Source: Anolis carolinensis (taxonomy: Eukaryota). Taken from it: DNA of 64,000 nucleotides. Made by a program: the position numbers and the translations under genes. A model generated the notes under the pieces. That model saw nothing but the letters and a program-made list of their open reading frames with translations. It was not told the origin of the DNA and ran no database searches. The stretch spans positions 11,023,190 through 11,087,189 of the forward strand of contig NC_085846.1 in the NCBI RefSeq assembly GCF_035594765.1, in the 5' to 3' direction. Positions 10,001-13,000 of the stretch are shown here, piece after piece (positions within the stretch are counted from its first letter, which is position 1; each line of letters begins with the position of its first letter).

Positions 10001-13000
10001 AAAAGTAACCCATATAACAGTATATACTTACATAGTGCTAAATGCTTTCACTGAGTGACTCTGCTTGTGGTGATTTCAACTGCGAGTAATTCTGAAGGTT
10101 CACTCAAGGGTTTTTAAAGAGTACTTGAAGGTTTAAAGGAAACAGCTAAAATTAAGTGATTCATTAAGTCCCTGAGGGGAAAAGGTTTTAAACTTAAAGA
10201 TCCAGTACATTTCCCTTTGGGATAATAGTTTTTCCAAGTCCATGAAAGGTTTTTGAGAGATGCATTCCAGAACACAAAATTTAAATGAGGTAGGTGAATG
10301 TTTGTATTGGGTGAAGTGTGAATATAAAAGAGATTCTGTAGATAAATTTTTGATTCTGGATTTATGTTCAGAGATTCTGATTCTCAAGGATCTGGTTGTT
10401 TTTCCAATATACCAGAGATCACAGTCACATGTCAAGAGGTAGATTACATTGTTGCTATTACAGGTAGAAAAATGTTTTAGTGTGGTGCCCACTTTGTTCC
10501 TATGATTATATATCTCCTTAGTCTTCCAAGATTGAGGACAACACTTACAGTGACCACAAGGATAATGGCCTCTCAGGGTGCTCTTTGGTGTACTAATAGG
10601 AGTGGTTAAATCTGTATGGATTAAATATTCTCTAATATTTTTAGTACGCCTGTTTCCAAAAATAGGTAATTTATCGCAACCTGAAATATCTTGAAGAAGA
10701 TGCCAGTGTTTTTTTATAATTTGGATTATGTGTTTGGAGTAATGTGATAATTCTTGTGTCCAGATAATTTGATTTTTAGTTGGTTTAGCAGATTCTTTCA
10801 GTAGGGTGGTTCTATCAGTTTTTTCAGCTTTAATTAATGCCTTTTTGATGACATGTTTAGGATAGCCTCTACTTCTAAACTCCTGGCTTAAGGTCAGGCT
10901 TTCATGAATGAAGTGTTCATTAGAGCTTGAGTTACGCTTTAGTCTAAGTAGTTGTGAAAATGGAAGATTGGTCTTTAAACCAAAGTGGTGGAAGCTGTTA
11001 TAATGAAGAAAAGAATTCTTATCTGATGGTTTTCTGAAGTTCTTGACCAACAGTTTGTTATGATGTTTATACACAGTAACATCTAAAAAATTGATATGTG
11101 ACAGGTTGAGATGACTGGTAAATTTAATAGACGTATGTATAGTGTTAATCCAATTAGAGAATCCTACTGCGGCTTCAGTTGTTTTAAATACTATGAATAT
11201 ATCATCAATGAATCGGCCATAGTATATTATATTAGAATAGTACATATTTAAAGATGGATTAAGCAATATAGTGTTTTCTAAATGTGCCATGAATAGATTG
11301 GCAATCGATGGAGCTAACGGACTTCCCATAGCGACACCGAAGGTCTGAAAGTAAAATTGGTTTTGAAAACGGAAATAATTTTTCTCTAGTACTATATCTA
11401 ACAAGTCCATCAAGAAGTGTGTAGGTGGTTGCAACTTTGTTCTCCTACGAAGGATATTTTCTATAATGGTACGAGCCTCATCTAGTGGAATGTTAGTATA
11501 GAGTGAGGTGACATCAATCGTAACTAAAATGCTGTCCTCCTCAATATTGAGATTTTCTACGATATTAATGAAGTGCTTTGTGTCTTTAATGTAGGAATCA
11601 CAGAGAGGGACAAATGGTTGGCAAAAGGAGTCTAGATATTTGGCAACTGGTTCCAATACAGAAGATGAACCAGAAATAATAGGTCGGCCTGGGGGTGGAA
11701 TGATGCCTTTATGAATCTTAGGAAGAATATAGAAGATAGGTATCCTAGGGAAGTCATTTTGTAAGTATTTAAATGTAGAAGAAGAGATAAATCCCATGGA
11801 TAATCCCTCTTGACACACCACCCTAATAAGGGACTGAATGTGTTTAGTGGGGTCTGTTGCAATAGGTTGGTAGAATTTACTATTTGATAGCTGGAGGTTG
11901 ACTTCCTTAATATAATCTCTTTTGTTAAGTAATACTATAGCTCCCCCTTTATCTGCTGGTTTCCAGACTACCTCTTTGAGGTTGCTCAATTTGACCAGAG
12001 TGGTTCTTTCTAATTCTGATAAATTTGAGTGGTATGGTTGTCTACGAGTAGTTAGCTTGTTAAAGTCCCTCTCTACAGCTTTTTCAAAGCATTTAATGTA
12101 AATGTTATCTGTGGAAGGGCAGAAGGTACTTTTGGGTTTGAAAGGATCTGTGGTAGTGTTGGATATGCTGTCTTTAAACATGTCTCTTAAGCGGATGGTT
12201 CTAAATAGCTTGAATAAATCTATTCGTGCTCGAAATGCATTAAATTTAGGGGTGGGAACAAATGATAGACCTTTGTTTACTATTGACCTTTCTACATCAG
12301 ATAACTTATAATCGGATAAATTAACAATCAGGTTCGGTGTCTCCGATTTCGGTCCCTTGGAAAAAAAGTTGAGGATGAGGATGATGGTAGAGTCCTATTC
12401 TTATGTCTGGAGGATCTTCTTAAAGGTGGTGAGTCAGAGACTTCAGAGCTTTCAGTTGTCCTTCCTGGGTCTTCCTCGGTAGAGGAGTCTGTAAATTGAG
12501 GATGGAATCTGACTTTTCTCTTAGAGGAAACTTGATCTTTGTCCAATAACCATGGGTAGACTCGATTGGACTGGTAATCATGACGATCTCTTTCAAACTT
12601 TTTAATTTTAAATTCCTTCACCTGATTGTACAGGTCACTACATTTTTTGTCAAGAGTCTCCAACATGGTAGCAGAGGTTGTATCTTTCGTAATGTTTTCC
12701 ATGAGATTGGTAATTTTATTTTCTCCATCCTTAATGGTGGCATTGGATTTCATAATCAATAATGCCATCAGATCCAAGGAACATTTGTTTAAAATTTTAA
12801 CCCATTGTTGTAAAAATTCTTTATCTTCTTTGAACATGCCAGGTGGTTTATATATCCTTAATCCTCTGGGGATCATATTGTGTTTTATATAATCAGCTAA
12901 TGTAGATGCATGGAGATCCAAACGAATGTTTCTTTTTTTCAATTTTTCTAAATCATAAAGTAAATTGCTGGTCTGGGAGGACTCAGCTGCTGGTACATGG

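Follow-up and report, generated by a model that had tools for sequence, protein, structure and literature searches.

How would a Neptune Penelope-like element (PLE) produce its reverse transcriptase (RT) and endonuclease (EN) when the conserved start of that protein lies upstream of the first AUG in its frame? The question is raised by a young insertion on the minus strand (15368..9888), flanked on both sides by a 14-nt duplication, in a 64,000-nt stretch of Anolis carolinensis DNA, hereafter the window. An earlier note had proposed that ribosomes slip back one base at a run of Us and thereby join two overlapping frames, ORF1 and ORF2. The coordinates behind this proposal proved correct: ORF2 is offset by -1 relative to ORF1 and is open from 12394 to 10133, with its first Met at 12181; the overlap is 67 nt; the heptamer is the plus-strand A7 at 12361-12367; and a -1 slip would give a predicted ORF1-RT-EN fusion of 981 aa. 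LIVNLS (12331) and KGLSF (12274), parts of a conserved PLE motif, both lie upstream of ORF2's first Met, as the note had said. The site has the X_XXY_YYZ form in the ORF1 register inside the overlap, with the -1 frame open onward. Features of the element are collected in Table 1.

Table 1. Features of the Neptune insertion and its ORF1/ORF2 junction, in window coordinates.
Feature	Coordinates	Strand	Basis or remark
Whole insertion, made up of an inverted 5' piece, a tandem copy truncated at its 5' end and the full-length element	9888..15368	-	self-BLAST
Target-site duplication, 3' copy, GTGTGTGATTTGTA; 1-2 nt common with element ends	9875..9888	-	sequence
Target-site duplication, 5' copy	15367..15380	-	sequence
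ORF1, 249 aa	12328..13077	-	ATG in strong context, ACT ATG G
ORF2 frame, 753 aa between stops, with N-terminal motif, RT, linker and GIY-YIG	10133..12394	-	translation and domain matches
ORF1/ORF2 overlap, 67 nt, both frames open	12328..12394	-	ORF listing
Slippery heptamer U_UUU_UUU, inferred -1 shift site	12361..12367	-	plus-strand A7; ORF1 frame ACU UUU UUU
ORF1 stop, 30 nt past heptamer, on Leu-Ile codons of LIVNLS	12328..12330	-	sequence
ORF2 part 5' of first AUG, containing LIVNLS...KGLSFVP	12182..12360	-	coding constraint
RT core, Pfam RVT_1	11159..11554	-	E 1.2e-11
CX2CxxC linker (CGHCKCC), Neptune/Nematis type	10538..10558	-	sequence motif; definition from PMC8557442
GIY-YIG endonuclease core, two Cys between motifs, RxxEH	10364..10462	-	Pfam GIY-YIG 24 bits, cut-off 22.6
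Hammerhead-ribozyme-like motif, internal pseudo-LTR	13246..13305	-	core by pattern; three stems by eye
Candidate 83-nt 5'-UTR intron (TAT|GTAAGT ... TTTTAG|A)	13336..13418	-	sequence; no spliced form in contigs of 4 probable RNA runs
Stem of the earlier note, AAUCGGA/UCCGAUU	12310..12348	-	in minimum-energy fold; unsupported as conserved stimulator
Rival 158-nt GT-AG intron joining ORF1 to ORF2 in frame	12356..12513	-	weak donor AAA|GTCAGA; contigs span it unspliced

Judged by its sequence features, the element is an endonuclease-bearing (EN+) PLE of the Neptune clade. It joins a PLE-type RT to a C-terminal GIY-YIG domain with two Cys between GIY and YIG, and the insertion combines a partial tandem or pseudo-LTR, an inverted piece and a target-site duplication, as EN+ PLEs do. 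By self-BLAST, 13272-15141 equals 9885-11754 at 99.95% identity, and a 229-nt piece, 13094-13322, is repeated inverted at 15140-15368. The CX2-5CxxC linker that marks Neptunes lies between RT and EN (CGHCKCC at 10558). Compared by eye, a sister family in the same genome, included among the 12 family representatives described below, differs hardly at all from the published rows of Neptune1_Ac (supplement of PMC8557442, available part). This family is 50.5% identical to the window's ORF2 over 745 aa in a pairwise comparison made without a tree, and its ORF1 and ORF2 are likewise split by a -1 junction at U_UUU_UUU. The 'Ac' in the name presumably stands for green anole. The Neptune identity given in the earlier note is supported; the window's element shares with Neptune1_Ac and its clade the RT, the CX2CxxC linker, the C-terminal GIY-YIG, the pseudo-LTR partial tandem and the hammerhead-like motif. 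An Rfam search gave chance matches only, with none to hammerhead or frameshift families. The candidate 5'-UTR intron resembles in location a 75-nt Penelope intron (PMC8557442, available part). Inverted insertion pairs a few kb apart were common in the genome (L004/L005, L006/L007, L008/L009 and L057/L058), an arrangement of the palindromic PLE insertion type.

The window holds three other features of note. At 19899-24807 (minus strand) lies a broken retroelement with overlapping ORFs, an RT match (Pfam RVT_1, E 1e-21) and weak RNase H-like and methyltransferase-like matches, which resembles a DIRS element. A perforin-1-like host gene occupies 39933-43139 (plus strand), with MACPF and C2 domains in its second ORF, and a G/T-skewed satellite with units of 134-174 nt occupies 918-2135.

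Canonical EN+ PLEs are described as having a single ORF (PMC8557442, available part), whereas the window's element and the Neptune1_Ac-matching family have two, with a -1 junction at U_UUU_UUU. Because the latter family shares the split, the mismatch limits the description and not the element's membership among EN+ PLEs. A single-ORF element that suffered a copy-specific deletion or an assembly error could look the same, and both the published single-ORF description (PMC8557442, available part) and the error-proneness of homopolymer runs speak for that possibility. There were 40 genomic matches to the element's own family, of which we retrieved 30; the site is covered in 22, a number that exceeds that of independent insertions because several loci form tandem or inverted pairs. 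None of the 22 carries a frame-joining indel at the site, and the two-ORF layout is therefore not an assembly error, which agrees with the reading in the earlier note. Two copies have eight Ts through a C-to-T substitution that leaves the length unchanged, and two older copies have 3 extra nt; a run of eight Ts, which the note had named as the sign of a single ORF, is not the state of most copies in the own-family alignment or in the contigs described below. The offset is identical in every own-family copy, and divergent families and other organisms have it too; this refutes the deletion or error explanation, to which we give almost no credence.

Conservation across the genome was measured with an ORF1 query (127 matches) and an ORF2 N-terminus query (150 matches), and we analysed 58 junctions from 59 loci. 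The ORF1-to-ORF2 offset was -1 in 30 of the 42 junctions having an ORF1 match; the remaining 12 fell in the other two frames (7 and 5), apparently through indels or breaks. T followed by TTT stood 11 codons ahead of the ORF1 stop position in 49/58 junctions, and the nine misses comprised six without an upstream ORF1 match, one with U_UUU_UUC and two decayed copies. We also chose 12 family representatives with unbroken junctions, which are about 45-60% identical and thus related rather than fully independent. U-UUU was found 11 codons before the ORF1 stop in all 12, and TTTT is invariant among them compared to 5 in-register T+TTT among 684 preceding codons. The U run is thus present beyond chance expectation, and the site is kept beyond coding need, as in programmed frameshifting. 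The register was kept throughout, a point that the earlier note's proposed alignment was meant to test, and the seven Ts vary: the heptamers were U_UUU_UUU (3), G_UUU_UUU (2) and C_CAU_UUU (7). The last two are non-canonical in the P site, and the poor P-site re-pairing of C_CAU_UUU counts against frameshifting; the C ahead of CAU, however, persists whether the codon that it ends is one for His, Thr, Pro or Tyr, as expected under tandem slippage.

Sequences around the site are constrained in both frames. The ORF1 stop (TGA, TAG or TAA) coincides with the LxVNLS L-[IV] pair in 12/12 representatives, compared to 13/25 for other L-[IV] pairs. Over the 35 codons that follow this stop in the 12 representatives, the ORF2 frame contains no stops whereas the other frames contain 34 and 45, and its pN/pS is 0.33, an uncorrected value for loci that were found through that same stretch. 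These observations establish coding constraint 5' of ORF2's first AUG, whose position varies from codon 4 to codon 160. Both frames are free of stops from the site to the ORF1 stop in the 12 representatives, and a stop 2-11 codons upstream closes the -1 frame in 14 of 17 representatives, which confines entry into ORF2 to the U run or later. Downstream of the site, the 12 representatives share CA, a purine-rich stretch and a stop 30 nt on; the 60-66 codons upstream occur in four lengths among the 12 sequences. The constant 30-nt spacing is suggestive only, since chance alone could keep 10 codons free of indels and the position of the stop is linked to the ORF2 motif as well.

Slippage by RNA polymerase or RT could instead add one U and yield fused mRNAs or DNA copies, and fusion by a lengthened T run does occur in 5/58 junctions, at four loci (L059, L081 twice, L090 and L092). 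These copies are natural in-frame controls; they are isolated, and none has been amplified. Only four Ts are present in 7/12 representatives, several four-T families have intact ORF2 frames of 743-748 aa, the contigs show no indel at the run, and a fixed codon register would be unnecessary for such a process. We consider this origin of the fusion very unlikely.

The junction extends to distant relatives. In metagenome contigs, 7 of 11 pattern matches encode ORF1 relatives at 32-38% identity; no related loci were found among the viral contigs or genome contigs searched. In each of the seven loci, the 180 nt that lead up to the ORF2 motif contain a single T run, which in the ORF1 register gives the heptamer U_UUU_UUA (3) or U_UUU_UUG (4). 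The distance from T run to motif is a multiple of 3 in 6/7 (105, 105, 105, 108, 114 and 132 nt), and the -1 offset is kept in six loci, the other being a decayed copy fused downstream. Three of the loci have premature ORF1 stops. Within the long overlap of L102, L103 and L107, the -1 frame retains a basic K/R-C-R-R-G motif, which again points to translation of the overlap in the ORF2 frame.

An ORF1 profile search returned 2,622 clusters at 50% identity, and the best 150 matches were mostly stand-alone proteins of near 250-300 aa. The earlier note had ascribed the junction to 'this lineage'; the two-ORF junction stands, but this wording understated its reach, which takes in a very large ORF1 family. 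From 161 homologous proteins we dropped 51 (39 without the anchor motif, 4 with short tails, and 8 long or fused), leaving 110. An F[LF] pair occurs in the tail of 97/110, compared to 13.8 ± 3.5 in shuffled tails, and lies between the Ser/acidic and Arg/Gly stretches; the reverse order, LF, occurs in only 5 of 110 tails, and 13/110 have no F[LF]. The codons for FL could be read for the seven distant loci only. A codon starting with G follows F[LF] in 79/97 tails, which we count against frameshifting. Five of the 161 proteins also matched ORF2, and two of these five, which have no N-terminal motif, look like gene-model joins. One protein, P0098, reads from ORF1 into the RT motif in one frame without F[LF] and may be a true single-ORF relative. 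In a Xenopus laevis gene model (P0018), an FLG tail is followed by a join to the RT N-terminal motif, probably through an intron predicted across the junction. A search for longer fused homologues found none, which is weak evidence.

ORF1 has a pN/pS of 0.43 over nine representatives. In its predicted fold (mean pLDDT 74), residues 35-169 form long helices modelled with confidence, the tail is disordered, and the C-terminal region consists of a disordered Ser/acidic part and then a basic tail. ORF1 matched no Pfam family, and its model gave no Foldseek match at E <= 0.001; the best structural Z score, 8.9, was to generic helical bundles and is uninformative. No capsid or zinc knuckle was detected, and protease is absent. 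By its basic tail and by analogy, the ORF1 protein probably binds or packages RNA.

As a further rival, ORF2 might be translated separately, by re-initiation past the ORF1 stop or from a non-AUG start, with the FF/FL pair kept for ORF1 function. The stop position is indeed conserved, and FL could be a short linear motif of the disordered tail. Such a start would have to manage with no conserved AUG and with an ORF1 stop that falls on the first conserved ORF2 codons and so leaves no room for it. In the distant loci, moreover, the overlap of 105-132 nt keeps both frames open, and the codons seen are always UUU after U, while the residues vary (FF, HF and FL). We regard separate translation of ORF2 as highly improbable.

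Alternative splicing could also join the frames, with the U run as a polypyrimidine tract and the next AG as acceptor. The T run followed by AG looks like a splice acceptor, which weighs against frameshifting: in the window, TTTTTTTCCAAG|G resembles an acceptor, a GT at 12513 is in phase with it, and introns do occur in PLEs (PMC8557442, available part). Among families, however, the first AG lies 3, 4, 5 or 8 nt past the UUU codon or is absent, so that all three acceptor phases occur, and in 4/6 distant loci it is 11-24 nt away. No donor is common to all families, and the one that the window offers at 12513 is weak. Use of the only strong donor, at 13418, would yield a peptide of nine codons in the ORF1 frame, and in the ORF2 frame a stop stands two codons ahead of this donor. 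We searched contigs from 4 of 24 listed runs, probably RNA and from four studies. The junction was bridged, unspliced and free of indels, by contigs of three of these runs; the fourth covered the site but had no more than 23 letters to one side of it. Contigs of the four runs, which can drop rare forms, contained no splice joint of the kind that the earlier note had named as contrary evidence. Since no spliced form of the 5'-UTR intron appears in them either, the contigs may represent unspliced read-through RNA or DNA. They show that the unspliced form exists, which does not mean that a spliced form is absent. Taken with the variable acceptor phase, these results make splicing an unlikely route.

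Relatives keep the U run at exactly the same position of the overlap, and ribosomes likely slip back one base there. With the site in register in 12/12 representatives and 7/7 distant loci, a programmed -1 frameshift at the U run is, as the earlier note had proposed, the best explanation of the two-ORF junction, and a likely one. A ribosome would translate ORF1 as far as U_UUU_UUU (12367-12361). The majority would terminate 10 codons past the site, giving the ORF1 protein of 249 aa, which is predicted to be a helical bundle that ends in a basic tail. A minority would slip by -1 after ...STFF and go on with SKGPK... to make the 981-aa fusion. We infer the slip, its rate and the role of ORF1; the layout, the in-register conservation and the coding constraint ahead of the first AUG were observed.

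No conserved local RNA structure that could act as a stimulator was found at the site, which weighs against frameshifting. The AAUCGGA/UCCGAUU stem put forward in the earlier note had a folding energy of -9.1 kcal/mol and z = +0.74 compared to 200 dinucleotide shuffles; its pairs are lost in a subfamily of 96-97% identity and replaced in older copies, and we reject it as a stimulator. No conserved 3' structure was found in 17 representatives (z -1.5 to +1.1), z fell below -2 in only 1/6 distant loci, the consensus fold over 20 sequences was empty, and no stable stem-loop stood 5-9 nt downstream. A hairpin from AGGG after the site to CCU before the stop forms in some families and was set aside, as only three of its columns pair in 85-100% of 20 sequences. 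An uncalibrated scan for H-type pseudoknots found none in 18 sequences, and a long-range scan for exact complements found 9-nt matches only. Documented -1 sites include G_GAU_UUU, where both a stop codon downstream and long-range pairing determine how efficient the shift is (PMC5009743, available part); by inference, this makes C_CAU_UUU plausible and a stop-dependent mechanism testable. That site, in pea enation mosaic virus RNA2, has the XX-A-UUU-U pattern of C_CAU_UUU (PMC5009743, available part), but its stop is 3 nt downstream rather than 30 nt as in Neptune, where the complements reach only 9 nt. Neptunes across vertebrates might even use gag-pol-style -1 frameshifting as their standard route to RT-EN without RNA structure: with the ORF1 stop fixed 30 nt downstream, about one ribosome length, a ribosome queued behind a terminating one would slip even on the weak C_CAU_UUU. 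We offer this extension as a rather improbable one.

The heptamer of HIV-1 gag-pol is U_UUU_UUA. This sequence is identical in 3/7 distant loci, and the two systems are alike in pairing a structural ORF with a minor polymerase fusion and in the G that usually comes next, as in the UUA-GGG context of the retroviral site (PMC5009743, available part). Neptunes differ in having no stable stem-loop at the usual distance, no detected capsid or zinc knuckle, and no protease. PLEs have been described either as single-ORF elements that carry EN or as two-ORF elements that lack it (PMC6431247, available part), and a figure legend mentions that a frameshift with a pseudoknot may set PLE ORF1 apart (Fig. 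1 of PMC8557442 and of its preprint, whose available part does not display the clade). Those elements resemble the present one in a helical or coiled-coil ORF1 joined to RT by a frameshift, but the Neptune element encodes an endonuclease, and neither a pseudoknot nor a conserved stem was found in it. The clade meant is presumably Athena. The earlier note had set frameshifting apart from usual PLEs; this holds in so far as EN+ PLEs are described as single-ORF, but it was overstated, since PLE frameshifts are in print for some clade (PMC8557442, available part). Killifish Neptune repeat.CL27 likewise has two long ORFs and an ORF1 without a database match, but its ORFs are reported as non-overlapping, and the available text does not contain the word frameshift (bioRxiv 10.1101/2025.05.22.655539). 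We found no description of a Neptune frameshift in the available parts of the PLE frameshift literature, including PMC3846280, PMC4209133, PMC5408684 and PMC9004415, and a prior mention is possible.

If true, frameshifting at this junction would mean that, for a large vertebrate clade, the view of endonuclease-bearing PLEs as single-ORF elements needs correction. The junction would also explain why Neptune ORF1, with 2,622 clusters and no Pfam family, has been missed or mis-joined in annotations. Reconstituting Neptune retrotransposition would probably need two proteins in a set ratio, and the sites themselves, from U_UUU_UUA to C_CAU_UUU and without evident RNA structure, would form a natural series of -1 sites for frameshift tests in vertebrate cells.
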